A program made the translations under genes and the position numbers. DNA of 61,660 nucleotides from Bacteroidota bacterium (lineage in GTDB: Bacteria; Bacteroidota; Bacteroidia; AKYH767-A; OLB10): positions 1 to 61,660 of the forward strand of contig JANOAX010000264.1 of NCBI GenBank assembly GCA_031411335.1. The letters are read 5' to 3'. A model generated the notes under the pieces. The model made no database searches, was not told the origin of the DNA, and worked only from the letters and a program-made list of their open reading frames with translations. Each line of letters starts with the position of its first letter. The stretch's first letter is position 1. This document shows, in pieces, positions 5,535 to 17,944 of this stretch.

Positions 5535-5569
5535 AAAAAAGGTTGCCCGGTAAAGAGGCAACCTTTTTT
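5535..5569. terminator. Bidirectional rho-independent terminator closing the R-M/defence operon
   Basis: AAAAAAGGTTGCC-cggtaaaga-GGCAACCTTTTTT forms a 13-bp perfect stem (including the A/T runs) with U-tracts on both strands. It lies about 120 nt downstream of the last minus-strand gene (stop at 5690). Confidence 0.75.
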
Positions 5570-5689
5570 ATTGGTATAATACAAGAAATTAAAGTTAGAA
5601 ACTACTTACCTAATTAGGTCCAGATTGCTTAGACAAAAGATGCTTATTAAGCTTAAATAGTTCCGAAAATTCAATTCCTTAGTAATCTC

Positions 5690-6682
5690 TCAACTTTTAC
5701 TTGAAGTTTTTGGGTTGTGTTTTTCAAAAAGTTCATATCGCTTATTGGCAGTACTTTCATTTAAGTGCTTTGGGAAACCATTAAGTACTTTTTCATACTC
5801 AACTTTGCCAATAACTTTACAAATATATGATTCATGAACAAAATTTAAGTAAGAAACTATATCAGATAAATACTGGTGGAATCTATTGAAGTTAATATCA
5901 GCATTTATAAATGATTCAATATCGTGATAATTGGCTTTGATTCTTAATCTATATAGCATATTTAATATAGTTGTTTCTGGAATTGTTGTGTATATTAAAT
6001 CCCAATGTGATTTATTGAATGTTTTTCTAAATTTTCCAGAATTGTTAAAAAAACGAGGGTCTTTAGCATTTTCTAGTTTTTCTCTCTTTACTTCTGCATT
6101 CTTTTTTCGAGTTGATTTGAGAAATGAAGCAATTTGATTTTGAGCATCCTCTATACAATTAATACTTGATAAACCATTAAAATTATCTGGAATACCATTA
6201 AATTTTATTAATCTCTTATATTCAAATTCCTCATGTAAACCACTGCAAGAAAAACTAATTGGTAACGGATAATGTTTGTCCTTAACTGAATTGCCGAATA
6301 TTTTGATGGATTTTTCATGTTGATCTGAAGCTATATTTTGTGTTTCATGAAAAGCTGTCATACCCAAATAAACTGTATAATATGCTTGTGGGAAATTCCA
6401 GTGTAATGCGAATTTGTAATAGTCGTCATTATCTACCTCGCCAGTCATTTTAAATGCATATTCAGTACTCCACGAATTCCATAATAACTTCTTTACTAAA
6501 TTTAAATCTAAAGTTCGATTTTTCAACTTTAAACGGTTAAAATAATCATTACTTTTTAAATCAAAACGGTTCTTACTTTGATTGATATGCATAGCGATTG
6601 CAGAAAAATGATTGAAAAAGACTTTAGAAGGAATTGCCTTTTTTGCTTGTTCATCAAACGACTTAATAATTCTTGGTTTCAT
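5690..6682 (-). CDS. Uncharacterised all-alpha protein with a HEPN-like Rx5H motif (YaaC/HEPN-like); last gene of the R-M operon
   Basis: 330 aa. The motif LYRLRIKANYHDIESF (R247..H253, nt about 5924-5944) fits the HEPN Rx4-6H signature. An upstream helix (HWNFPQAYYTVYLGMTAF) is reminiscent of YaaC-like proteins. The gene starts 47 nt downstream of hsdM. The family call is tentative. Confidence 0.45.
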   Translation of the reverse strand: MKPRIIKSFDEQAKKAIPSKVFFNHFSAIAMHINQSKNRFDLKSNDYFNRLKLKNRTLDLNLVKKLLWNSWSTEYAFKMTGEVDNDDYYKFALHWNFPQAYYTVYLGMTAFHETQNIASDQHEKSIKIFGNSVKDKHYPLPISFSCSGLHEEFEYKRLIKFNGIPDNFNGLSSINCIEDAQNQIASFLKSTRKKNAEVKREKLENAKDPRFFNNSGKFRKTFNKSHWDLIYTTIPETTILNMLYRLRIKANYHDIESFINADINFNRFHQYLSDIVSYLNFVHESYICKVIGKVEYEKVLNGFPKHLNESTANKRYELFEKHNPKTSSKS

Positions 6683-6729
6683 AGATAATTTTTCAAAATG
6701 TTGGGTGGGTTATTCAGTTTAACACTCCA

Positions 6730-8220
6730 TCACTTTCCATTTATCGTCAACATTATTTCTCTGAAACTTGCTAAACCCGCTTCTAGGTTTTCAATTATTT
6801 CTCCAGCTAAAACCTCTGGGTCGGGTAGATTGTCAAGGTCTGCTAAAGATTTATCTTTTAACCAAGTGATGTCCAAAGAGGTTTTATCACGACTGGTAAT
6901 TTCGTCAATAGAAAATTTTCTCCATCGACCTTCTGGGGAAGTTGAACCTTTCGAAGCTTCACTCCACGTTTCTTTTCGTTTATGTCGGTTTTGGGGATTG
7001 TAGCAAGTGATAAAATCTCGCATATCTTCCAGCGACAACTGATTTCTTTTAAGAGTGTGATGAATATTAGTCCGGTAGTCATACACCCAGACTTCCTTAG
7101 TCCAGAATTCTCTTCCTGCTGGTTTGTTGTCAAAGAAAATCACATTTGCTTTAACTCCTTGAGCATAAAAAATTCCTGTTGGTAATCGAAGTATGGTATG
7201 AAGGTCTGTAACCTCCAACAATTTCTTACGGACAGTTTCGCCTGCTCCGCCTTCAAACAAAACATTATCGGGAACTACAACGGCTGCAATGCCTGTAGTC
7301 TTTAGCATTGTTCGAATATGCTGAACAAAGTTTAATTGCTTGTTACTAGTAGTTGCCCAAAAGTCTTGCCGATTGTAAGTCAAATCTTCTTTCTCTTGTT
7401 CGCCTTCTTCGTTGGTAAAGGTTTGTGAACTCTTTTTACCGAAAGGTGGATTTGCTAAGATGTAATCATAAGTAGTTGGGGCTGCTGAAATCAACGCATC
7501 AGCAGGAGAGATGAAATTTTCTGAATCAATATCACCGATGTTGTGTAAAAACAAATTCATCAATGCCAACCTTCTTGTACCTGCCACGATTTCGTTTCCA
7601 AAAAAAGTATTGTACTTTAAAAATTGCTTTTGAGATTTATCCAAATCATGTTTCTCTACCAAATAATCATAGGCTGCCAAAAAGAAACCACCTGTGCCAC
7701 ATGCAGGGTCGGCAATGGTTTTCTTTGGTTCGGGTTGCACACACTCCACCATTGCACGAATCAAAGCCCGAGGAGTGAAGTATTGACCTGCGCCACTTTT
7801 CGTGTCTTCTGCGTTTTTCTCCAACAGCCCTTCATATATATCTCCTTTGTCTTTCACGCCCATCATTACCCAATTTTCCTTATCAATCAAGTCAATTAGT
7901 TTTGAAAGTTTAGCGGGGTCTTGAATTTTGTTTTGGCTCTTTGTAAATATTTGCCCTAAGATTCCTTTTTCTTTCCCCAACTCACGTAGTAAATTGATAT
8001 AATGCACTTCTAACTCTGCACCTTTCATTGAAGTTAATGTTTCCCAAACAAATTCTTTAGGAATAGGAAGTTTACGGTTGTGAGGCGGCTTGCTATATTC
8101 ATCAGCCATTTTTAAAAACAGCAAATAAGTAAGCTGTTCTAAATAATCTCCGTAACCAACACCATCATCACGAAGGGTGTTGCAGAAAGACCATACTTTT
8201 TGAACTATTGGACTATTCAT
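6730..8220 (-). CDS. hsdM: Type I restriction-modification system, N6-adenine DNA methyltransferase subunit
   Basis: 496 aa with an HsdM N-terminal domain (FCNTLRDDGVGYGDYLEQLTYLLFLKM), SAM motif I (DPACGTGGF) and catalytic motif IV (NPPFG). Confidence 0.95.
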   Translation of the reverse strand: MNSPIVQKVWSFCNTLRDDGVGYGDYLEQLTYLLFLKMADEYSKPPHNRKLPIPKEFVWETLTSMKGAELEVHYINLLRELGKEKGILGQIFTKSQNKIQDPAKLSKLIDLIDKENWVMMGVKDKGDIYEGLLEKNAEDTKSGAGQYFTPRALIRAMVECVQPEPKKTIADPACGTGGFFLAAYDYLVEKHDLDKSQKQFLKYNTFFGNEIVAGTRRLALMNLFLHNIGDIDSENFISPADALISAAPTTYDYILANPPFGKKSSQTFTNEEGEQEKEDLTYNRQDFWATTSNKQLNFVQHIRTMLKTTGIAAVVVPDNVLFEGGAGETVRKKLLEVTDLHTILRLPTGIFYAQGVKANVIFFDNKPAGREFWTKEVWVYDYRTNIHHTLKRNQLSLEDMRDFITCYNPQNRHKRKETWSEASKGSTSPEGRWRKFSIDEITSRDKTSLDITWLKDKSLADLDNLPDPEVLAGEIIENLEAGLASFREIMLTINGK

Positions 8221-8238
8221 TTTGTGTTTTTTATATTA

Positions 8239-8847
8239 TTACCTGTGTGCCAATGCTGCTTTTAAGTGCTGTTCTGTTTGTTGATCTAAAACCAAATCGT
8301 TTTCTGTTACATATGCGTTTAATTCTATTGCTCTGAACCTTGCCATTTTTGGAGAGTCTAAACCGAACATCTTAATTGATGCAGTTGCTTCTGCGCTGTT
8401 AGATTGAATTACAATTCTCTTTGCATTGTCAACCCATGTGTAGTGTATATCAGGATTATGAAAATACGGATGCACAATTAGGAAATCACAATTACCATAA
8501 ACTACATTTTTTGTTCTGATAGTTTCTTGCTGAAATTTTTTCTTTGGCCCGTTACAAAAATTGCAAGCTAAAACTAAGTTCTGTTCTGTGTATGTAAATT
8601 CAGGATACCTTGCTTGTCCCTTTGCTGCAATGTGTTCAATTTCTCCCGCACTTGTTCCACCTAATTCTAATCCACAATAAGCACAACTTGTTTGAGTAGC
8701 ATCTAACTGTCCTCTTATTTTAATTTTCAAAACTTTTGTTCTTGCAACTGGTTTATCCCATGTTTGTCCCATTGGCGGATTCAAACCCGCAATGTGGTTT
8801 GTATCGGATTGGTCGAAAATAATAGGACAAATTAATTGAACAATCAT
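8239..8847 (-). CDS. ptuB: HNH endonuclease, Septu PtuB-like (TIGR02646-type)
   Basis: 202 aa. The HNH core is CAYCG...EIEHIAAKG...NLVLACNFCNGPKK. Its start overlaps the stop of the upstream AAA ATPase by 4 nt (8844-8847). Confidence 0.75.
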   Translation of the reverse strand: MIVQLICPIIFDQSDTNHIAGLNPPMGQTWDKPVARTKVLKIKIRGQLDATQTSCAYCGLELGGTSAGEIEHIAAKGQARYPEFTYTEQNLVLACNFCNGPKKKFQQETIRTKNVVYGNCDFLIVHPYFHNPDIHYTWVDNAKRIVIQSNSAEATASIKMFGLDSPKMARFRAIELNAYVTENDLVLDQQTEQHLKAALAHR

Positions 8848-10385
8848 AGTGTTGAACGATAGGTTTTGATTTGTTTGATAATTTCAATTGTTGGGTCGGC
8901 TTCACTTAATTTTAATTTATCTAACCTCCCAATAATTTCATCCAACTCAACTGTCTCTGTGTTTTTATTTGTTATTTGCTTTAATGCTTTTCTTAAATCC
9001 ATTTCTAAATAATAGTTTGAAGTAGATTTAACATTAAACACTCGATACAAAACATCTTCGGCTGGCCATCCATAAGTATTTGTCTGCTCAGGAATTTCAA
9101 CAGTCTCTATTTGCTCATCTCGTTTCAGTCCAATAATTTTAGAATTCTCGCCTTTCAAATCTGAAATGAGAAAATGAGAATGCGTTGCAATAATAAAGTG
9201 ACAACCAGTGTATTTCTTAAAGAGTTTATTTATGATTTCAAAGTATTGCATCTGCCAATTCGGATGCATGCTTATTTCTGGTTCGTCAATTAAAATAACA
9301 CTGTTGTCTTTTACTTTGGCTAATAAACCAATCAATGAAGTGAAGATATGGTATTCCCCTGAACTGCTGTCTTCAAAATCATAAACGGTATTTGTTTCTC
9401 CATTAATTACTTGAATGAATGGAAATGAAATCAGGTCTAACCAACCTAATTGTTTTATCATTTCAAATTCTTTCTTGATGTCAAGTTCGCCGAAAATGTG
9501 AAGTTCAAATTTCTTGCTGTTTGGGTGGTCATTACTATATGGAATAATTTTGTAAACCATCATTTGAATATAATTTACAATTGCTTGAAGTAAGTCTTTG
9601 TCGTTCTCAATTTTCCGAAAATGTTTTTCTCCTCTTAGTGGCGTTGTTCTATTCTTCTTTGCATAATCATTAAAAAACTCTTTAAGACCCTCAACCGATA
9701 ATTCTTTGCTGTAAATTTCTTTAAAGTATCTTGGTGTATATCCAATAATAATGTTCCCATTAATGTTTAAGTATTTTAAAATCTGTTCAAGATTTTCAAG
9801 AAAGTTCTTGTCATCTGAAATCTCGACAAGATTTTGTGCCGTAATACGAGCTAAGGTTCTTGTTCCAGCTACTGATGGTGTTCTTCGAACTCCTAAGTAA
9901 TTGTAAATATCAAAACCTTGCTTGGCTGCTATCACTGGAAATTTATCCGTTAACATGATCGAACTTGCTAAAAGTTTTTCGGGCAGTTGAATATCCATTA
10001 ATTCTTTTATTGGCTCCCCATTTTGCTTACAAGTTAACATTGAACCCTTTGTAAAAGCTTTTAGCAGTTTTATATTATCGCTTTTAACAATGTTTCCAAT
10101 CTCATAAACATTTTCATTGTATGAATACTTAATAAAAAAGCTGCCTGTTATGTGAAAGGGCCGCTTGCCTTGAATTTTATAATCAAATATTTCTCTGATA
10201 ATGTCAATAAGAGTTCTAAGTATATAACTTTTGCCTGTTCCGTTGGGCCCAATTAATATTGTAAAATAGTTCCCGTGAAGCTTATCATTATCATTTGTAA
10301 AAGACAAGTTGAGAGTTCCAAGATACCTGTTCTCGTAGGTTTGTAACTCATAAATTTTAAATCCTTTGTTCATAAAAAAATACAT
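8844..10385 (-). CDS. ptuA: ABC/AAA_15-21-type ATPase, Septu PtuA-like
   Basis: 513 aa with Walker A (GPNGTGKS), Walker B (VILIDEPEISMHP) and an H-loop (IATHSHFLISDL). It is paired by overlap with an HNH gene. The likely real start is MNKGFKIYEL at 10373. Confidence 0.75.
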   Translation of the reverse strand: MYFFMNKGFKIYELQTYENRYLGTLNLSFTNDNDKLHGNYFTILIGPNGTGKSYILRTLIDIIREIFDYKIQGKRPFHITGSFFIKYSYNENVYEIGNIVKSDNIKLLKAFTKGSMLTCKQNGEPIKELMDIQLPEKLLASSIMLTDKFPVIAAKQGFDIYNYLGVRRTPSVAGTRTLARITAQNLVEISDDKNFLENLEQILKYLNINGNIIIGYTPRYFKEIYSKELSVEGLKEFFNDYAKKNRTTPLRGEKHFRKIENDKDLLQAIVNYIQMMVYKIIPYSNDHPNSKKFELHIFGELDIKKEFEMIKQLGWLDLISFPFIQVINGETNTVYDFEDSSSGEYHIFTSLIGLLAKVKDNSVILIDEPEISMHPNWQMQYFEIINKLFKKYTGCHFIIATHSHFLISDLKGENSKIIGLKRDEQIETVEIPEQTNTYGWPAEDVLYRVFNVKSTSNYYLEMDLRKALKQITNKNTETVELDEIIGRLDKLKLSEADPTIEIIKQIKTYRSTL

Positions 10386-11612
10386 TTATAGTAACCCCCC
10401 TTCAAACGCTTTCTTCAAAATACTTTGCTTCAACATTTCTGCTTGATGTAGCGCGCTTGTAATTGCTTCTTCGACCTTATCACAAACACACAATCTGCTT
10501 TCAATTTCTCGAACAATCACCTTTTGCTCTTCCATAGGTGCAAATGGAATGATGGATGCTTTAAGTTGGGTTGTATTTATTCTTGGTCTTGTTGCTCCAT
10601 GAATATGATTTACTAGCTGATTTTGCATTGCCTTCGTTGAAAAATAAAATGCCAAATAATTCTTGTTGATTTTTGTTTCTTCAACCCGAACAAGAAAACA
10701 ATCTGCTTTGTTGATTGCTTTGTCAATGTAATCAGGTAGAATAACTGAACGAATTATACCCATAATAAAAGACGAAAAAATAATATCACCCTTGCCTACA
10801 GTATGTCGCTTTAGCGTCTCATATTTTTCATGTGATATGAACGTTTTGTGTTCATTTCTAAATTCCATTTCACCGATATTTTCCAAACGAATTACTCTTA
10901 CACCTTCGTTAACATAATCATTGCTTTTCAGATTAGATCCAAAAGGTCCATCTGATATTCTTTCAACTAATTCTTTTAGTTCAATTTGTTTCCATCTGTT
11001 TGGCAAATCACCGTTTACCTTTTTGTTTGTTAATCTACCTTCAAAGGCCCATTTTAAAACTGATTGCCTGTAAACTTTTAATTGCTGTTGGGCTATTTCA
11101 AGTTGCTGAATTCCATTTTCTAAATCACTTAAAAGTTCTTCGATTTTGGAAATGATTTCTTCTTGTTCTTTCATTGATGGCACAAGCAATTCAAAATTCC
11201 AAAGTAATGTTGGTTCTATGTGTGGAATACCGACACCTTTTGGTTTTGTGTTTAAGATTTGGAATTTGGAACTTATGAAGTGATACAAATATTCTTTATG
11301 AATATTTTCCTTTGGCAAAATTTTCATGAGTGTAGAACCAACTGCCCCTTTCTTTGCTTTACCAATCAACCCACATCTTGCACCATCCCAAACCATCAAC
11401 AAATCTTTGTCCTCACATAAATTACATTTTGCCCCGTTAGTGTATTCAGCAAAAATTCCTTTCTCAAATGCTTTGATGTTGATGTAAGGAATTTTACATT
11501 CTTTATTTACTTTTTCTACTAAAACCTGTGGCTTTTTTCCTTTGGAGTAAGTGCACACTTCCCCTAACTTTTTAAATTGGCTTTGCTTTTGTATTTTACT
11601 TTGTTCAATCAT
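10386..11612 (-). CDS. hsdS: Type I restriction-modification system specificity subunit
   Basis: 408 aa with two target-recognition domains. They are separated and followed by conserved coiled-coil spacers (EQEEIISKIEELLSDLENGIQQLEIAQQQLKVYRQSVLKWAFEG and EEQKVIVREIESRL...QAEMLKQSILKKAFEG). Confidence 0.9.
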   Translation of the reverse strand: MIEQSKIQKQSQFKKLGEVCTYSKGKKPQVLVEKVNKECKIPYINIKAFEKGIFAEYTNGAKCNLCEDKDLLMVWDGARCGLIGKAKKGAVGSTLMKILPKENIHKEYLYHFISSKFQILNTKPKGVGIPHIEPTLLWNFELLVPSMKEQEEIISKIEELLSDLENGIQQLEIAQQQLKVYRQSVLKWAFEGRLTNKKVNGDLPNRWKQIELKELVERISDGPFGSNLKSNDYVNEGVRVIRLENIGEMEFRNEHKTFISHEKYETLKRHTVGKGDIIFSSFIMGIIRSVILPDYIDKAINKADCFLVRVEETKINKNYLAFYFSTKAMQNQLVNHIHGATRPRINTTQLKASIIPFAPMEEQKVIVREIESRLCVCDKVEEAITSALHQAEMLKQSILKKAFEGGLL

Positions 11613-13387
11613 TACTGCAGTGCCGTAAATATTTTTTTAAATTTTATAACTGTTTGGTCACTTAATTCCACTTTTTCTTTTTGAAGAAATAATATTTGTA
11701 TGGCAGTATTGAACTTTGATTTATCATAATTTTGCACTGATTTGTCTAAATATTTTGTGATCTTTAGTCTTTCTGTGTCGTTAAACAGAAATTCGGTTGA
11801 GTAATTGTATGCGGGATCAATGTCTGTATAGGTTGTTATTTTATCTTCAACCACACCATTAAATTCGTCAACATAACGTTGTTTTGCCTTATTGCCTGGA
11901 GGATCACCATCTAGCAAGATTTTAAATTCTCGATTCCAAGCAAGATAGAGTGCAATTACTTGCTTGTTTCTATCTGCTCCTGTTCCCGGATAAAAATTCA
12001 GCGCGAATTCATTCTCTCCAAGTATAACTTCATTGATATATCGAAGGGCATAATAATCATTTTTTCCTTCTGTAATTATAATTTTTGGAACTTCTTCCAA
12101 TAAACCAGGTTGATAGTCCAACGCATCAAGAATAGGTTGAAAATAGGTTCTTTGCTCAGGATTCTGGCTTGCAAATTGTTTGTATGGGATAGCTTCAATA
12201 TCCGTTTTTTCGCTGTCAAAATTTAATTCATCATCATAATCAAGATTTTTATTTCGAATAATAAATGCGCCAGAAAGCCAATCTGGGTTTATTAAATGAT
12301 GACTATGTGTTGTATAAATCAATCTGCTTTTATCAACTAATTTCTCAAAAGTTTTTAGAAGATTTTTTTGAGCAGTGGAATGTAAATTAGAAGCGGGTTC
12401 ATCAAGAAGAAATAAAATTTCTCCTTCATTTTTCGATCGCATTTTTCTAAACTCAGTAAAAAGCAAAAATGTGAAAAACCATTTAAATCCCAAACTTCTT
12501 TCTGCTATCTGATAATGGTTTGAACCCTCCTTTAATCTGACTTCTAAGTAATATCTTTTCTCTGCGCCTTGCTCAATGTCTGGTTTTAAAATAATTTCTT
12601 TTCCTTTTGATTGGAAGAGTGTTTCCCATGCCTGAAAAACAGTTTTAGAAACTTTAGCACTCATTTTATTAATGGTTGACTCCAAAGCTTCCTTTGCATC
12701 ATCCTTCGTACTTTTCATTCGTTCAAGTAAATGTTCCTGGGTATTCAAACCACCACCAATTGAATCTAAAATATCACTGATTACTTCTCTATAAGTTCCC
12801 TGCTCCCCAGTTTCGGAGGCATACTTTTCTAAATATATTCTTGCAGGAAATGAAAATAAAAAGTCTGGATAGTAAATGATTGGTGGGATCAAATTACTCT
12901 CTATAAAATCGGTTATTTTTATCCAATCATCTGAATCCGATTTAATTGACCTTTTCCTCTTGGAATCTTCTTTTATCCCTTTTAACTCCAATTCCCATAT
13001 AGGGTCAGATTCTTCTATTACAAACACAGAATTTTTAAAAACTTTTACTTTCTCAATTTCAATTTTCTTAATCCCTTCCAAAGAATGAATTCCGATTGAT
13101 TTTGCATAATCTCTAATTGCCTTTTCATCCTGTTGGTCGAGCTTCAGAAAGGCTTTTATAGATACTGAGCCGTTGAAGTTTAATTTTTTTTCCTTAGGAA
13201 TTAGTTTGTGACATTCTTCATTGGGAATATCCTTTTTAAATAAAGTTATTGCTTCTAGGATGGAAGTTTTTCCGCTTTCATTAAGACCGACTAGAGTTAA
13301 CACTTTTGACTTTGGTTCTTTTTCCAAGTCAACAGTAAGGTCTTTGATTCCTTTGTAATTTTTAATAATAAACTTCGAATAACGCAT
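11612..13387 (-). CDS. OLD-family ABC ATPase fused to a C-terminal TOPRIM/DUF4435-like nuclease domain (class-1 OLD or fused PARIS AriA-AriB-like)
   Basis: 591 aa. The N-terminus is FIIKNYKGIKDL...VGLNESGKTSILEAI (Walker A). Other ATPase motifs are the signature-like SLGFKWFF, Walker B (LFLLDEPASNLH) and H-loop (YTTHSHHLI). The C-terminus has TOPRIM-type acidic motifs: IIITEGKNDYYALRYI (E440) and KILLDGDPPG (DxD, 493-495). Its stop overlaps the hsdS start by 1 nt. Confidence 0.75.
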   Translation of the reverse strand: MRYSKFIIKNYKGIKDLTVDLEKEPKSKVLTLVGLNESGKTSILEAITLFKKDIPNEECHKLIPKEKKLNFNGSVSIKAFLKLDQQDEKAIRDYAKSIGIHSLEGIKKIEIEKVKVFKNSVFVIEESDPIWELELKGIKEDSKRKRSIKSDSDDWIKITDFIESNLIPPIIYYPDFLFSFPARIYLEKYASETGEQGTYREVISDILDSIGGGLNTQEHLLERMKSTKDDAKEALESTINKMSAKVSKTVFQAWETLFQSKGKEIILKPDIEQGAEKRYYLEVRLKEGSNHYQIAERSLGFKWFFTFLLFTEFRKMRSKNEGEILFLLDEPASNLHSTAQKNLLKTFEKLVDKSRLIYTTHSHHLINPDWLSGAFIIRNKNLDYDDELNFDSEKTDIEAIPYKQFASQNPEQRTYFQPILDALDYQPGLLEEVPKIIITEGKNDYYALRYINEVILGENEFALNFYPGTGADRNKQVIALYLAWNREFKILLDGDPPGNKAKQRYVDEFNGVVEDKITTYTDIDPAYNYSTEFLFNDTERLKITKYLDKSVQNYDKSKFNTAIQILFLQKEKVELSDQTVIKFKKIFTALQ

Positions 13388-13399
13388 TAGTTTTAAGCT

Positions 13400-14044
13400 T
13401 TAAAGTTTAATACGGGTACATAGGTATTTAGAGCTAATAACATCGATCATCAAATAACCATCAAATAAGAATTGGCTGATTATCAATGCTAATTGGCTCC
13501 AGAATCGCATAATTGTCAAATAGCCATCAAATAATATTTTTGGGCTTTCTGTTACATACCTGTTACTTAAGAATTTGATTCTCGCGCGGGTTTTTATCAC
13601 ATGCCAGTCACATAACAAAGTGTTGGTTTTAAAGGGGTTAATTTTTGAAAGCCGGCTTTTAGTCACATACCCATCACATAATAATTTAGTCCAATAAATT
13701 GATTCTTTTACGAATCTATTGTATGCTTTTTGAAAGGAATACAACCCTTCCATCAAATAAACTTCCATTAAAGATTTGTGGCAAAATCGATTCCTTGTTA
13801 CATAGCCGTTACATAAGTTTTTGCCATTCAAAAGGGGTTCTATCACATGCCCATCACATACCAACATGATGATTTTCAATACTAAATTGTTAAAGGGGGG
13901 TCGTTCTATCACATGCCCATCATATAAACGTTGAGGGCAAAAACTCCCTTCAGGATTATCTTTTCCAGTCAAATACCAGTCAAAAGGGATTTTAAACATC
14001 TGCATGTTTTTAAAAATTGGTAGGTAATTGCTTTTCTCTATCAT
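13400..14044 (-). CDS. Basic repeat ORF with about 10 copies of L-[CFY]-[DN]-[GW]-[YH]-[VL]-[TI]; no family recognised and coding status uncertain
   Basis: A 214-aa ORF in an AT-rich stretch. All repeat-to-repeat distances are multiples of 3 (66, 36, 45, 66, 90, 45, 45, 66, 60 nt), so one frame is preserved. Composition is K/R/L/I/F/Y/C-rich and acid-poor. It sits between DUF3800 (76-nt gap) and the OLD-like gene (12-nt gap). Confidence 0.45.
   Translation of the reverse strand: MIEKSNYLPIFKNMQMFKIPFDWYLTGKDNPEGSFCPQRLYDGHVIERPPFNNLVLKIIMLVCDGHVIEPLLNGKNLCNGYVTRNRFCHKSLMEVYLMEGLYSFQKAYNRFVKESIYWTKLLCDGYVTKSRLSKINPFKTNTLLCDWHVIKTRARIKFLSNRYVTESPKILFDGYLTIMRFWSQLALIISQFLFDGYLMIDVISSKYLCTRIKL
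13450..13985 (-). repeat. Array of ten 17-nt units, each a hexamer pair spaced 11 nt start to start
   Basis: Plus-strand units by start position. 13450: tcaaat-aacca-tcaaat. 13516: tcaaat-agcca-tcaaat. 13552: ttacat-acctg-ttactt. 13597: tcacat-gccag-tcacat. 13663: tcacat-accca-tcacat. 13753: tcaaat-aaact-tccatt (degenerate). 13798: ttacat-agccg-ttacat. 13843: tcacat-gccca-tcacat. 13909: tcacat-gccca-tcatat. 13969: tcaaat-accag-tcaaaa. There is a higher-order repeat of about 246 bp (units at 13552/13597/13663 versus 13798/13843/13909). Confidence 0.85.
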
Positions 14045-14120
14045 TTGTTTTTACTTTTGCCTAATAAGTCTGCTAAGCATGAATGTCGGCTCCAAGCCGT
14101 TTTCGGGTGCAAAACCTGAA

Positions 14121-14966
14121 TTAGTGCTTTTGTGGACTTATTTTTTTTGATCCTGTTAAAGGGTTTTTAGGTGAATAATAGTTGCGCCATTCATAAAAAT
14201 TATTGGTATCGTATAAATCCACAACTAAAGAAATTTGCGGCAACAGAAAGTCGTAAAAGCGTGTTTCTCCTTTTTCAAATACGCGCTGAATTGTCCAACA
14301 AAAATAATCGGCTACACACAATAATGGTTCCTGTGTAGGATTTTGAACATTAAAAACAGTGTTGGCATTTATATCGTGCCGGGAAACTTTTTCTCCTGTG
14401 TTTTTTCTTGTGCGTGTTTCAGCTAAGCGTTCCTTCGCTTTTTCTAAAGCCAAAGTAAGGTTATGGTGTTTCGTACTACTGCCTCGCTCAGATACATTTA
14501 AAACCAGTTTGTGTTCTTTCTCAATTTTATTTTTAAGCAAATGCGAAAGTAAATCGGCATAAAAATATTCCTCTCTGCCTTTGTGTTTTGTTTCATAGCG
14601 TTCCAGAGATTTTCTTCCAACCACGGCTTCAAATGAACAGTTTAAGGATTTTATCAGATCGAAAAATAGTTTTCTGGTTTCTGGTAAATCATCCGTTGCA
14701 TGAAAATAAAATCCAGTTGCATTTTTCTTTTTTAATACAGATGGCGCTTGAAAATATGGATCGTTTGCTATTTTTTCTTGCAATACTACTACTTTATCGC
14801 GGACGTCTTCTAGTGGCTCTTTAAACTTCACCATACCAATAATAAAACAGCTGGAAACACCTTGATTGCCTAAAATTGCTTTTTTACCCTTGCCATAAAA
14901 TGAAGTATCACCGGCCTCATCTAAAAAGCGGTGGTTCGATTTTATTTTTTTATTATTCAAGCTCAT
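14121..14966 (-). CDS. DUF3800-family protein
   Basis: 281 aa with the hallmark N-terminal FLDEAGD motif, a mid-protein FHATDD and a C-terminal LLCVADYFCWTIQR segment. Its ATG overlaps the hsdR stop (TAATG, nt 14964-14968). Confidence 0.7.
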   Translation of the reverse strand: MSLNNKKIKSNHRFLDEAGDTSFYGKGKKAILGNQGVSSCFIIGMVKFKEPLEDVRDKVVVLQEKIANDPYFQAPSVLKKKNATGFYFHATDDLPETRKLFFDLIKSLNCSFEAVVGRKSLERYETKHKGREEYFYADLLSHLLKNKIEKEHKLVLNVSERGSSTKHHNLTLALEKAKERLAETRTRKNTGEKVSRHDINANTVFNVQNPTQEPLLCVADYFCWTIQRVFEKGETRFYDFLLPQISLVVDLYDTNNFYEWRNYYSPKNPLTGSKKISPQKH

Positions 14967-17821
14967 TATCCTGCCAATGCTTGGTTTAGTTCTTCGATAA
15001 TAATGTCAGTGTTGTCCCCGAATAATTGCCACATCTTGCTCAAGCCACCTTGTGCGTTGAAGGGGTTTAAATCAAAATCATCTTTCTCAATATTATAAGA
15101 TGTTGCTACATACTCTTTAATCATACGCAACCATTGCATTTGTTCTTCTGTAAAACGGTTGTGTTGCCCTGCGTTCTTTTTTAAAATCCAGTCACGAAAA
15201 TTCTTGTCAACCGTTTTTGAGAAATCATTCAAGGTTGTATCCATACCAGTTACATTCCGCAACAAACTCACTAAAGCAATCAACTCGTTTTTAGGCTGGC
15301 CGGTAACTTTTTCCAACTGTTCGTAGCATCGCCAAATATATATAGGCGCTAGATTGGGTTTGGCGGCAACCAATTTTTGCAACACCTCTTTAATCATCGA
15401 ATAAGTAAGTTCTCGTCTTCGGTATGGTTGTTTGTAAAAAATTTGTAATGCAGTTAACTCATCTTTATTTTCCTGCATCCATTGTTCAAAATCTTTTATA
15501 AGTGCCTCGGCCTTTTGCTTATTGTCTTTGTCCCAACCAACATTTATTACGCTGTCGGGATTTAGTAAATCAATTTTCTGTTCGTGTGCCTTGCGAACAT
15601 TTTCAATGTATTCATTTAACTCACCTGAGAAAACTTTTGCCGCGCTGTTCTGTAACGCTGTAACCAAAGCATTATACTTTTCTTCTTTCTCTGTGTGTGC
15701 AGCACCTACATTTTCGGTTTCAACCTTTGTCCGAATATCTTCAAGCGTATCAGGATTAAAGGCGTTTAACAAATCTTTCACAACTTGCGAAACGGTTTTG
15801 CCTTCAGCTATTTTTTCAAACTTCTGTTTTTCCTTTTCTGTAATTTGTTTGTCAAGACGTGTAAGTCGATTTGCAATCGATGTGAATATTTCTTCTTCTC
15901 GTGCACCGTATGAAATAGCTTGTAATAATTCCTTTAATGGAACACCTGGCTTTTTCTCCAAAGGACGGCTATCTGTTTTCAAACTTTTAGTAACGCCAAT
16001 TGCATCAACAATTACAAAATGGTCTTTCGTGCTTTTTGCTGTAGGTGTAACTTTTTTCAAATCATCCAACAGAATTGTACGTGTGCCTCTGCCTTTCATC
16101 TGCTCAAAATAATTTCTGCTTTTTACATCCCTCATAAAAAGCAAACATTCCAACGGCTTTACATCAGTGCCTGTTGCAATCATATCAACCGTTACTGCTA
16201 TTCTAGGATAATAATCATTTCTGAATTGAGCCAGTACGCTTTTAGCATCATCGGCTTTGTACGTTATTTTTTTGCAGAAACGATTTTCTTCTGCAAATTC
16301 TTTACGTACAGCCTGTATTATATCATCAGCGTGTGAATCGGTTTTGGCGAATATTAAAGTTTTAGGAACTTCAAACTGCCACACAGTATCATTTGGGCCG
16401 TGCTTCATAATTGGAAAAAAGCATTCCTCCTTCTTTAAATCATTATTTAAAAACCATCTTTCTGGAAATAAATTAGGTAGATTTTCTTTAAAAGATCTTA
16501 TGATGGTAGTAATTTGATTGGGGTTCACAATGTCTTTATCCAACTGTTGCGACGTGTACGTTTCATCTTCGTCTTGCAACTCCAATCTTTTCTTTCTACT
16601 CAATCGCTCTCGATGTTCTACATATTCACCTTTCCAAATAGTTGCTCCTTGCTTGGTAATTTTTGTTTCAATAATAAATACATTATAACCTACATTCACT
16701 CCATCTGCAACAGCCATTTCATGTGAATATTCGCTCACCACATTTTGTTCAAAGTATGCAATGGTTCTTGCATCCGGTGTCGCTGTAAGACCCACTTCAA
16801 AAGCATCAAAATAATCTAACACTTGCTTCCACAAATTGTAAATGCTCCGATGGCACTCGTCAATAACAATGAAGTCAAAAAACTCGATCGGAATTTTTTC
16901 ACTGTATGCAATTGGAGGCACTTCTTTAGGTTGCCACTTTCTTTCATTAGGGTTTTCTTCTTCAGCACTTTCTTCTAACTCTGTTCCTTTAAGAATTGAA
17001 TACAGTCGCTGAATAGTGCTGATGCAAACTTGACTATCACTGGCAACAAAACTTGAACGCAACCTTTGAACATTGTAAAGCTCTGTGAACTTTCGGTTGT
17101 CGTCAACGGGAATATAATTGAGAAATTCTTGTTCTGCTTGTTCGCCTAAGTTTTTAGTATCAACCAAAAACAAAATGCGTTTTGCTTTTGAGAACTTTAG
17201 CAAGCGATAAATAGAGGTTATTGCAGTAAAGGTTTTTCCTGCACCTGTTGCCATTTGTATTAATGCTTTTGGTCGATTCGCTTTGAAAGAAATTTCCAAA
17301 TTGTTGATCGCCGAAATTTGACAATCTCTCAAACCGTTAATAGCTAATACGGGCAAGTCGGCCAATCTTCCTCTTAAAGAGACAGCTTGTTCCTTATCCT
17401 TACTAATCCTCAGCCACTCTCGAAAAGTTTCGGGTCTATGGAATGAAAACACTTCTCTTGACCTTGGTTTGGGGTCATGGTAATCGGTGAAACGCGTTAC
17501 TGTGCCTGTGCTTTCATACACAAAAGGTAAAGGCTTATTATCAAGGTGTTTGAGCTTTGCTTTTGAATAATCTTCACTTTGATTTTCGTGAAACGTTAAG
17601 CGATGGCCTTCTTCTTCCCGTTTAGCTTCAATGATTCCACATGGTTTACCATCTACGAACAAAACATAATCCGCGGGCCCAATATCGGTTTGAAATTCTC
17701 TAACGGCAACTCCAATGTTGGCTTGCAAGTTAATTCTTGCCTTATCCTGAATAGCCCAACCACTACGTTGCAAAGCAACGTCTATTTGGTCTCTTGCTAT
17801 TTGTTCAGGGTTCTGGTTCAT
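14966..17821 (-). CDS. hsdR: Type I restriction enzyme, restriction (helicase/endonuclease) subunit
   Basis: 951 aa. The N-terminal nuclease region reads DYVLFVDGKPCGIIEAKRE (PD-(D/E)xK-like). SF2 motif I is QMATGAGKTF and motif II is VIDECHRS. The long helical C-terminal domain is typical of the EcoEI-R-like C-terminus. Confidence 0.95.
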   Translation of the reverse strand: MNQNPEQIARDQIDVALQRSGWAIQDKARINLQANIGVAVREFQTDIGPADYVLFVDGKPCGIIEAKREEEGHRLTFHENQSEDYSKAKLKHLDNKPLPFVYESTGTVTRFTDYHDPKPRSREVFSFHRPETFREWLRISKDKEQAVSLRGRLADLPVLAINGLRDCQISAINNLEISFKANRPKALIQMATGAGKTFTAITSIYRLLKFSKAKRILFLVDTKNLGEQAEQEFLNYIPVDDNRKFTELYNVQRLRSSFVASDSQVCISTIQRLYSILKGTELEESAEEENPNERKWQPKEVPPIAYSEKIPIEFFDFIVIDECHRSIYNLWKQVLDYFDAFEVGLTATPDARTIAYFEQNVVSEYSHEMAVADGVNVGYNVFIIETKITKQGATIWKGEYVEHRERLSRKKRLELQDEDETYTSQQLDKDIVNPNQITTIIRSFKENLPNLFPERWFLNNDLKKEECFFPIMKHGPNDTVWQFEVPKTLIFAKTDSHADDIIQAVRKEFAEENRFCKKITYKADDAKSVLAQFRNDYYPRIAVTVDMIATGTDVKPLECLLFMRDVKSRNYFEQMKGRGTRTILLDDLKKVTPTAKSTKDHFVIVDAIGVTKSLKTDSRPLEKKPGVPLKELLQAISYGAREEEIFTSIANRLTRLDKQITEKEKQKFEKIAEGKTVSQVVKDLLNAFNPDTLEDIRTKVETENVGAAHTEKEEKYNALVTALQNSAAKVFSGELNEYIENVRKAHEQKIDLLNPDSVINVGWDKDNKQKAEALIKDFEQWMQENKDELTALQIFYKQPYRRRELTYSMIKEVLQKLVAAKPNLAPIYIWRCYEQLEKVTGQPKNELIALVSLLRNVTGMDTTLNDFSKTVDKNFRDWILKKNAGQHNRFTEEQMQWLRMIKEYVATSYNIEKDDFDLNPFNAQGGLSKMWQLFGDNTDIIIEELNQALAG

Positions 17822-17944
17822 TTAAAATATTCAATAATAAGATTGACAAAGTAACAAAACAGAACCGAAGATTGCTCTTCGAAGCGGAAAAAGCGAATGA
17901 ACAACACTCTTCCTATTATTTTAATGGGCTAATAACTATAAATT

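Follow-up and report, generated by a model that had tools for sequence, protein, structure and literature searches.

Predicted defence genes in both inter-subunit gaps of a type I restriction-modification locus from a Bacteroidota bacterium

In Escherichia coli, the prr locus carries the anticodon nuclease PrrC inside hsdMSR, the genes of the EcoprrI type I restriction-modification (R-M) system. Payne, Hughes, Fineran & Jackson (2024, doi 10.1101/2024.01.29.577857) describe defence genes lying within type I R-M, BREX, DISARM and Hma systems ("guilt-by-embedding") and report that 96.7% of these genes are co-oriented with their hosts. In their account, ABC ATPases are the family most often found inside Hma systems and PrrC the near-exclusive example for type I, and both a genomic sink and a backup for the inhibited host system are discussed as explanations. 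Variable genes between hsdR, hsdS and hsdM also occur in the rlo loci of Campylobacter jejuni and in Vibrio cholerae VPI-2, where TgvAB, embedded in a type I R-M locus, still protects when hsdR is mutated (PMC11411939); TgvAB shows that hsd inserts can be independent defence systems. Here, we analysed a stretch of 61,660 nt from a Bacteroidota bacterium (assembly GCA_031411335.1, contig JANOAX010000264.1; hereafter, the window), which holds a type I R-M locus of nine co-oriented minus-strand open reading frames (ORFs) between positions 5690 and 17821. Their order is hsdR, DUF3800, a "repeat ORF" (ORF3), an ABC-ATPase/TOPRIM (OLD-like) gene, hsdS, ptuA, ptuB, hsdM and ORF9, which encodes 330 amino acids (aa). 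The nine ORFs stand at exactly the positions given in an earlier note on this DNA, and the ORF listing bears out the layout that it had described, with hsdR, hsdS and hsdM each separated by other genes.

We consider it probable that this is a chromosomal type I R-M locus with layered, largely autonomous cargo that shares transcription and inheritance with the hsd genes. Both inter-subunit gaps would serve as slots for exchangeable defence cargo. The slot between hsdR and hsdS (R-S slot) would hold DUF3800 with an element at its 3' end, a non-coding array and the OLD-like nuclease, the slot between hsdS and hsdM (S-M slot) would hold PtuA/PtuB, and ORF9 would trail hsdM. Expressed together or in two units, these genes could provide layered immunity, in which the R-M enzyme would cut unmodified DNA, and Septu, the OLD-like nuclease and DUF3800 would act as autonomous second-line nucleases. 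Anti-defence proteins of phages are known to set off relatives of some of these. The benefit of embedding would lie mainly in linked inheritance and co-expression and not in a dedicated protein complex, with DUF3800 as a possible exception. The earlier note had read the locus as a type I R-M operon interleaved with defence modules that may guard the R-M complex, with PrrC and the Campylobacter rlo genes as precedents. The interleaved operon and both precedents hold, whereas the guard role is unlikely for most of the cargo.

In comparison with the cases of Payne et al., the locus is alike in its co-oriented nested genes, in the prominence of ABC-ATPase systems (Septu, OLD-like) and in the backup or co-regulation rationale. 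Nested same-strand cargo of the kind defined there is present here and throughout the lineage. The locus differs in the number of nested items, four to five across its two slots with one more gene trailing, in belonging to a lineage in which embedding is found in 48 of 49 loci, and in holding two non-coding elements, of which the sections consulted of that paper make no mention. Since embedding and the backup idea were already set out by Payne et al., the interpretation offered in the earlier note corresponds to a published hypothesis. The Vibrio and Campylobacter loci differ from ours in cargo families (GmrSD-like in Vibrio), gene order and phylum. The prr locus is similar in having an effector gene between hsd genes, and DUF3800, like PrrC, mostly (not only) adjoins a type I subunit gene; in contrast to prr, no anticodon-nuclease domain is present here, and most of the cargo is not specific to hsd loci. 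We know of no masking interaction or Stp-like trigger for this locus. As a split R-M operon, the locus adds little, being one more, fairly rich, case of defence within defence.

The variability of the cargo became apparent from a genome scan with HsdM, which yielded 80 related loci at 79-85% identity (L002-L081). The order was hsdR, hsdS, hsdM wherever those genes were present. Of 62 loci, 56 had an S-M gap of at least 500 bp, and of 49, 36 had an R-S gap of that size. One or both gaps reached at least 500 bp in 48 of the 49 loci holding all three hsd genes, with cargo in both gaps in 32, in one gap in 16, and in neither in a single locus; judged by these sequences, the split operon is the rule in this hsd lineage, not the exception. 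The inter-hsd DNA of the window amounts to 5.5 kb, which is equalled or surpassed in 8 loci. The number of embedded ORFs ranged from 1 to 7 per locus, and the 179 ORFs (167 co-oriented, 12 opposite) fell into 116 protein clusters. The cargo belonged to families familiar from defence loci, including ABC ATPases, AlbA_2/HATPase_c_4, GmrSD, KAP NTPase, TIR, AbiC, M78+HTH, RelA_SpoT, Piwi, McrBC and RhuM. PtuAB of the window recurred in one lineage locus (L020, 37% identity), as did DUF3800 (L046, 62% identity), and the OLD-like gene and ORF9 recurred in none of the related loci. Cargo thus comes and goes without correlation with the hsd genes for every module but DUF3800, a pattern that the earlier note had named as speaking against its own proposal. 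This rapid turnover speaks against Septu, the OLD-like gene or ORF9 acting as a specific guard and, together with the presence of modules on their own elsewhere, favours autonomous cargo (co-transfer, co-expression) over a co-evolved guard complex. The loci were mainly from Bacteroidota but, by the assignment of metagenome-assembled genomes, also from Planctomycetes, Ignavibacteriales, Smithella, Spirochaetota, Fibrobacter and Margulisbacteria, a spread that indicates either that the hsd backbone has moved widely by horizontal transfer or that some genomes were wrongly binned. With cargo in 48 of 49 loci, one widely transferred hsd lineage is a ready-made source of candidate defence genes, ORF9 included. 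We also observed an unusual cargo set in the hsdS-hsdM slot of L210 (10395-16316), composed of a 2OG-Fe(II) oxygenase, an HSP70-family protein, a UvrD-like helicase and a 517-aa protein.

Table 1. Features of the R-M locus, in order of transcription, with positions in the window.
Feature	Positions	Strand	Basis or remark
Intergenic region upstream of hsdR	17822..17944	-	Weak hairpin at 17865-17882; operon promoter presumed here
hsdR, type I restriction subunit, 951 aa	14966..17821	-	Pfam, PADLOC REase_I, motifs
DUF3800 protein, 281 aa, RNase H2-like fold (predicted)	14121..14966	-	PF12686; PADLOC DUF3800_VII, 5e-15
Two-hairpin element, ~85 nt	14038..14124	-	Starts at the DUF3800 stop codon; candidate structured RNA
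"ORF3", open frame of 214 codons (open stretch, 216)	13400..14044	-	Spans repeat array
OLD-like ABC ATPase with putative C-terminal TOPRIM-like domain, 591 aa	11612..13387	-	AAA_15, PADLOC, motifs
hsdS, specificity subunit, 408 aa	10386..11612	-	Two target-recognition domains
PtuA, Septu ABC ATPase, 513 aa	8844..10385	-	PADLOC PDLC00265
PtuB, Septu HNH nuclease, 202 aa	8239..8847	-	PADLOC PDLC00312, Pfam HNH
hsdM, N6-adenine methyltransferase subunit, 496 aa	6730..8220	-	Pfam, PADLOC, motifs
ORF9, 330 aa, conserved all-alpha family	5690..6682	-	Homologues, AlphaFold2 model
Intrinsic terminator	5535..5569	-	Closes the gene string; 16-bp hairpin, -21 kcal/mol, z -6.05

Searches of Pfam, PADLOC and NCBIfam agreed with the earlier identification of hsdR, DUF3800, the OLD-like ATPase, hsdS, the ATPase/HNH pair (Septu PtuAB) and hsdM, and returned no match for the "repeat ORF" or for ORF9, which had been labelled "HEPN-like". 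By their domains and motifs, the three hsd products form a complete type I R-M set. HsdR matched ResIII (4.9e-38), HSDR_N, Helicase_C and, at the C-terminus, EcoEI_R_C (4.7e-35), and contains a PD-(D/E)xK motif (D...IIEAK) and the helicase motifs DECH and TAT. HsdS matched Methylase_S in two stretches (3.8e-28) and the PADLOC model Specificity_I over residues 14-407 (2e-68). HsdM matched N6_Mtase (8e-68), HsdM_N and the PADLOC model MTase_I (1.9e-194), and carries the motifs NPPF and PACGTG.

The genes all point the same way and follow one another closely, with a single intergenic region on the promoter side and a single strong terminator at the other end. Reading of the junction sequences reproduced those reported earlier: hsdR/DUF3800 and OLD-like/hsdS are both TAATG, the latter being a 1-nt overlap, ptuA/ptuB is an ATGA overlap, and at hsdS/ptuA the TAA is directly followed by ATG (0 nt). 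The gap between ptuB and hsdM is 18 nt, and that between hsdM and ORF9 is 47 nt; further gaps of 76 nt and 12 nt lie 3' of DUF3800 and before the OLD-like gene, respectively. The strong terminator proposed in the earlier note was borne out by its fold (Table 1), in which the hairpin closes with a 7-nt loop; the terminator scan itself did not call this site, and it found none comparable inside the gene string. The operon promoter is presumably located upstream of hsdR, where the exact Bacteroidota -7 motif did not occur. The hairpin in that region follows the preceding gene, which encodes a protein with a type IX secretion sorting tail, and is terminator-like and weak (-7.4 kcal/mol, z -1.5). 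Internal promoters were considered and rejected, since a sigma-70 scan performed no better than on shuffled sequences and the Bacteroidota TAnnTTTG motif was absent from the gaps, both scans being weak evidence. The guanine-cytosine (GC) content of the island is 0.345, compared with 0.372 for the rest of the window, so that it is AT-richer than its surroundings, as the earlier note had judged by eye, although only modestly. GC is lowest in the cargo genes (0.28-0.32) and reaches 0.38-0.39 in hsdR and hsdM. The cargo is therefore compositionally distinct from hsdR and hsdM, and both DUF3800 and ORF9 are found on their own elsewhere, which supports the reading of exchangeable cargo.

The S-M slot contains a Septu system. 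PtuA matched PDLC00265 (1.4e-108) over profile positions 2-475 of 479 and has Walker A GPNGTGKS and Walker B VILIDE; PtuB matched PDLC00312 (2.9e-29) and Pfam HNH, and has CAYC and CNFC motifs with histidines. The full-length PtuA match together with the adjacent HNH protein identifies the pair as Septu. It resembles other Septu systems in these two respects and in the overlap of the two genes, and differs in being embedded in an hsdS-hsdM gap. PtuAB is also the effector pair of type I-A retrons. Among the nine operon ORFs and the ten nearest flanking genes scanned (hereafter, the scanned genes) there was no reverse transcriptase, so the Septu pair is not part of a retron.

The OLD-like protein matched AAA_15 over the whole profile (4e-24, positions 1-374 of 374) and the PADLOC models AriA (9e-27), Old (1.5e-15) and ATPase-Toprim_I-B. 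It contains Walker A GLNESGKT and Walker B LFLLDE as well as the TOPRIM-like motifs ITEG and DGD. Its C-terminal 192 aa, searched alone, had PADLOC mad4 as the sole and weak match (1.3e-5), and no match to Pfam TOPRIM, DUF4435, AriB or OLD TOPRIM profiles. An N-terminal ABC ATPase, with a putative C-terminal TOPRIM-like metal-binding domain in the same polypeptide, recalls OLD-family proteins, the ATPase-Toprim effectors of retron I-B, PARIS, HEC-04 and MADS mad3/mad4, and the gene is predicted to encode a single-gene nuclease of the OLD-family or ATPase-Toprim type. No UvrD partner adjoins it, and it is thus not Gabija. PARIS was rejected because, apart from the AriA ATPase match, the C-terminal part matched neither AriB nor DUF4435. 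The MADS models mad3 and mad4 gave weak matches, while mad2 and mad5 resemble hsdM and hsdS; these matches echo an ATPase/TOPRIM pair inside an R-M-like system. MADS itself was rejected, as the NCBIfam scores were far below the cut-offs (MADS2, 94 vs 720; MADS3, 19 vs 420; MADS5, 67 vs 400). A PrrC or RloC type for the two ATPases was also rejected, because the 25 PADLOC matches listed for each embedded protein were, for these two, of PtuA, AriA, Old, GajA and AbiL types. Catalytic motifs were intact in all embedded enzymes.

DUF3800 is an exception among the cargo, with a conserved position after hsdR that, by its junction sequence, is translationally coupled. The protein matched PF12686 with 25.2 bits (gathering cut-off, 21) and carries the N-terminal DE motif LDEAG, in which D16 and E17 are invariant in 38 homologues. 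Its AlphaFold2 model (pLDDT 83) had an archaeal RNase HII as the top Foldseek match (E 5e-5, probability 1.0), and the top 15 matches were all RNase HII, H2 or H3, with modest TM values of 0.38-0.49. Judged by this model, the fold is RNase H2-like, in agreement with Mestre et al. 2020 (PMC7736814). A search returned 1324 homologues at E<=1e-10 and, in plasmids, no match. In a small sample of six other independent contexts, five had the homologue directly behind an EcoEI_R_C-type hsdR, and the sixth was a stand-alone pair with an HTH_3 gene. The TAATG overlap is kept in L046, L208 and L213; L212 retains the hsdR tail and TAATG before DUF3800 despite an intervening PDDEXK_3 gene call, and L210 has TAAaaATG instead. 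Conservation of TAATG in four contexts suggests stoichiometric co-translation of DUF3800 with hsdR, and a PrrC-like dependence is possible for DUF3800 alone. We also observed that in L212 (7950-8001) the last hsdR codons (...LAA, then TAATG) are present directly before DUF3800, which suggests that recombination inserted cargo there and in doing so duplicated the 3' end of hsdR.

The DUF3800 stop codon opens a two-hairpin element with a conserved ACATTCATGCAGGGCAGAC stretch. A covariance model (R1) picked it out at every one of the seven DUF3800 loci, the stand-alone copy among them (L046:3360-3444, L208:2000-2085, L210:8852-8937, L212:8864-8949, L213:8864-8949 and L215:8813-8899 besides the window), and at one relic that lacks a DUF3800 gene (L059:1756-1837), and had no further match in 1.4 Mb. 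Compensatory changes are visible in the alignment and consensus fold: 94% of the cells are paired and 9 of 13 pairs have double changes, which 0 of 500 shuffles reached, in a sample of eight sequences whose alignment was fitted to the model. Even with the threshold relaxed to E<=10, no Rfam 15 family matched the element. Weinberg et al. 2017 (PMC5737381) described 11 unrelated DUF3800-associated RNA motifs, and the element is probably a further one. The DUF3800-I to -XI RNAs and the type VII retron effectors (PMC7736814) are alike in the DE motif, the RNase H2-like fold and a structured element adjoining the gene; here, in contrast, the element is outside the Rfam 15 families, a reverse transcriptase is absent from the scanned genes, and the gene is coupled to hsdR. 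A type VII retron was rejected, as no reverse transcriptase was found among the scanned genes and no retron or DUF3800 RNA family of Rfam in the window. In L059, a different tandem repeat (units like tcgctcgttgagcggagtcg; 1000-1840) lies between hsdR and a GIY-YIG gene, past which the DUF3800 3' element without its gene is followed by one heptamer-pair unit of the kind described below. The repeat, the orphan element and the unit look like relics of earlier cargo.

The "repeat ORF", previously listed as a gene, proved to be an array of a widespread nucleotide-level repeat without a conserved protein. About 9 units occupy 13449-13992 (minus strand), each composed of TTA, a heptamer, GGNY and the same heptamer (11-nt offset; TTATTTGATGGTTATTTGAC units), and some of the spacers hold the palindrome TTGATAATCAA. 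The heptamers fall into the sequence classes TGTGAY, TGTAAC and TTTGAY, with TGTCAT too at other loci (four in all). The ORF3 product was an orphan in 5.8 billion proteins, save for one 97%-identical fragment, and a full HMMER scan of 1.8 billion representatives matched only ORFs of 51-124 aa with the same motifs. Under a detection filter of at most one mismatch between halves, 144 of 151 detected units had halves identical over the first five bases, in every class; in the TGTCAT class, the first half carries a non-synonymous change that is mirrored in the second half by a synonymous one. Outside the window, a unit spacing of 65 nt was as frequent as one of 66 nt, and related arrays hold in-frame stops. 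The codon-usage score of ORF3 was the lowest of 36 window ORFs, with an inverted pattern of GC3 above GC1. We rejected a real repeat protein on account of the orphan status, the weakest codon score, the nucleotide-level mirroring, the 65-nt spacing and the in-frame stops in related arrays, and ORF3 is most likely non-coding DNA. The open stretch is statistically odd (0 of 2000 shuffles match), and ORF3 may still be translated in this genome. The annotation of a 214-codon "gene" is thereby corrected: the stretch is an array of a DNA motif that is widespread and associated with AlbA_2/HATPase_c_4 and hsd genes.

The surroundings of this motif are recurrent. We located the 20-mer TTATTTGATGGYTATTTGAY in at least 120 metagenome stretches, in which 27 of 52 upstream co-oriented ORFs were AlbA_2/HATPase_c_4 and 22 of 46 downstream ORFs were hsdR (8), hsdS (6) or AlbA_2 (8). 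In the cases examined, the array begins 4-18 nt past the AlbA_2/HATPase_c_4 stop codon, and in those listed the last unit ends 9-35 nt before the hsdS or hsdR start codon. The repeat is frequent as 65-66-nt modules with the TTGATAATCAA palindrome adjoining AlbA_2/HATPase_c_4, hsdS and hsdR genes; units lie just upstream of hsdS in the hsdM-lineage loci L021, L061 and L073 and in L086, and repeat sites were located at L021:7599-7810, L061:7090-7230, L086:801-1380, L087:387-970, L106:360-640 and 2143-2290, and L112:1105-1320. The window has no AlbA_2 gene, and a weak possible AlbA_2 3' remnant precedes the first unit; the array was perhaps left over from an AlbA_2/HATPase_c_4 gene, which is frequent in the R-S slot. 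Its position suggests protein-binding DNA in an operator-like place or a cassette-boundary relic, and the motif could act as a regulatory site for the AlbA_2/HATPase_c_4 family, whose R-M-associated proteins are abundant and uncharacterised. A structured RNA was rejected, because RNAalifold gave no pairs on 21 modules, and so was a CRISPR-like array with a 65-66-nt period, because L106 and L112 have near-identical "spacers" and one and the same array holds repeats of different classes. The array had no match in Rfam, and a literature search for the repeat sequences returned nothing relevant. We must also note the 702-bp metagenome contig with the 97%-identical variant of ORF3 (L082:1-702; 2.4x coverage), which is 99% identical to window positions 13517-14161 over the DUF3800 3' end and units 1-8. 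It diverges fully right after repeat unit 8, all seven mismatches lying in the last 80 nt; it may be chimeric, and no conclusion was drawn from it.

Several points weigh against the reading of layered, autonomous cargo. No promoter was recognisable by the sigma-70 or the Bacteroidota -7 consensus, and the transcription-unit structure, which was deduced from the DNA sequence only, is unproven. If ORF3 is not translated, a stretch of ~730 nt inside the operon (14120-13388) may be untranslated and could then break polarity or hold an internal promoter or operator. The TOPRIM assignment of the OLD-like protein rests on motifs and the weak mad4 match, and neither the ORF9 family nor the repeat array has an assigned function. 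Finally, the conserved TAATG coupling of DUF3800 to hsdR hints at more than passive co-residence.

A genomic sink would explain part of the same observations. In that case, the slots would merely be recombination-tolerant, the cargo would hitch-hike with no tie to R-M, and parts of it would be separate units or decaying relics. The extremely fast cargo turnover in the lineage and the GC of the cargo, which is below that of the hsd genes, are as expected from this explanation. So are the relics, namely the ORF3 array without its usual AlbA_2 neighbour, the weak AlbA_2 remnant, the orphan element of L059 and the duplicated hsdR tail of L212. A passive sink fits less well with the orientation of the cargo, which is co-oriented in 167 cases vs 12 here and in 96.7% in Payne et al., and with the intact catalytic motifs of the embedded enzymes. 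The window junctions, which are overlapping or 0-18 nt long, and the lack of a called internal terminator moreover indicate selection for read-through expression. We therefore regard a sink as rather unlikely.

A guard of the PrrC type is, in our view, improbable for the locus as a whole. According to this explanation, at least one embedded protein would be held latent by HsdR/M/S and freed once the complex is disabled by an anti-restriction protein of a phage (Ocr, ArdA or Stp-like). PrrC/EcoprrI is an established precedent; Payne et al. discuss the idea for embedded ABC ATPases and report that anti-defence proteins trigger ABC-ATPase/nuclease systems such as PARIS, Gabija and OLD. In this hsd lineage, in contrast, Septu, the OLD-like gene and ORF9 are not conserved partners, no PrrC or RloC model was among the 25 PADLOC matches listed for any embedded protein, and TgvAB, an embedded system that was tested, works independently of HsdR (PMC11411939). 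For DUF3800, its place after hsdR in 5 of 6 other contexts, four with TAATG, has to be set against its presence in only 1 of 49 related loci with hsdR and against the stand-alone copy with an HTH gene, in which the 3' element is kept. A PrrC-like guard role is thus unlikely overall, but worth testing for DUF3800 and its RNA element, since the coupling to hsdR and the private structured element make such a dependence directly testable. It is likewise doubtful that DUF3800 and the two-hairpin element form a dedicated HsdR companion, an RNA-dependent guard or effector (a PrrC analogue) that would sense the state of the restriction complex and be made in step with HsdR via TAATG, while the heptamer-pair arrays would in parallel serve as operator or cassette-boundary sites organising cargo expression or exchange.

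Layered, largely autonomous cargo thus is the preferred explanation. The genes that flank the locus are housekeeping genes, e.g. mnmG, ybeY and a DtxR-like regulator. As in the earlier note, no integrase (among the scanned genes), tRNA (in the window) or flanking direct repeat (of at least 10 nt) was found, and no Rfam family was matched in the window. A mobile element was rejected on the basis of these absences and the housekeeping flanks.

ORF9 closes the gene string. Its product had 207 homologues at E<=1e-3, which among the matches listed were 55-67% identical, all unnamed and without a Pfam domain, and its AlphaFold2 model was all-alpha (pLDDT 88; predicted TM score, pTM, 0.87). The former label "HEPN-like" found no support: there was no HEPN match in Pfam, PADLOC or NCBIfam, a profile search of PDB sequences returned nothing relevant, and Foldseek, which can miss small helical domains, gave no match at E<=1e-3 against PDB and BFVD. 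In the stretch RLRIKANYH, R245, R247, N251 and Y252 are invariant, whereas homologues have R, L, K or N in place of His253; HEPN was rejected because the histidine of Rx4-6H varies and no profile or fold matched. Homologues in Dokdonia and Polaribacter lie outside hsd loci, and from its genomic contexts ORF9 looks like a mobile stand-alone gene. In Polaribacter dokdonensis (L084:1-20987), more than 20 small genes, most of them without annotation, run in one direction downstream of a tyrosine recombinase; the homologue is one of them, and so is a CdiI_3 immunity-like gene. This arrangement resembles the arrays of immunity genes that are associated with recombinases.

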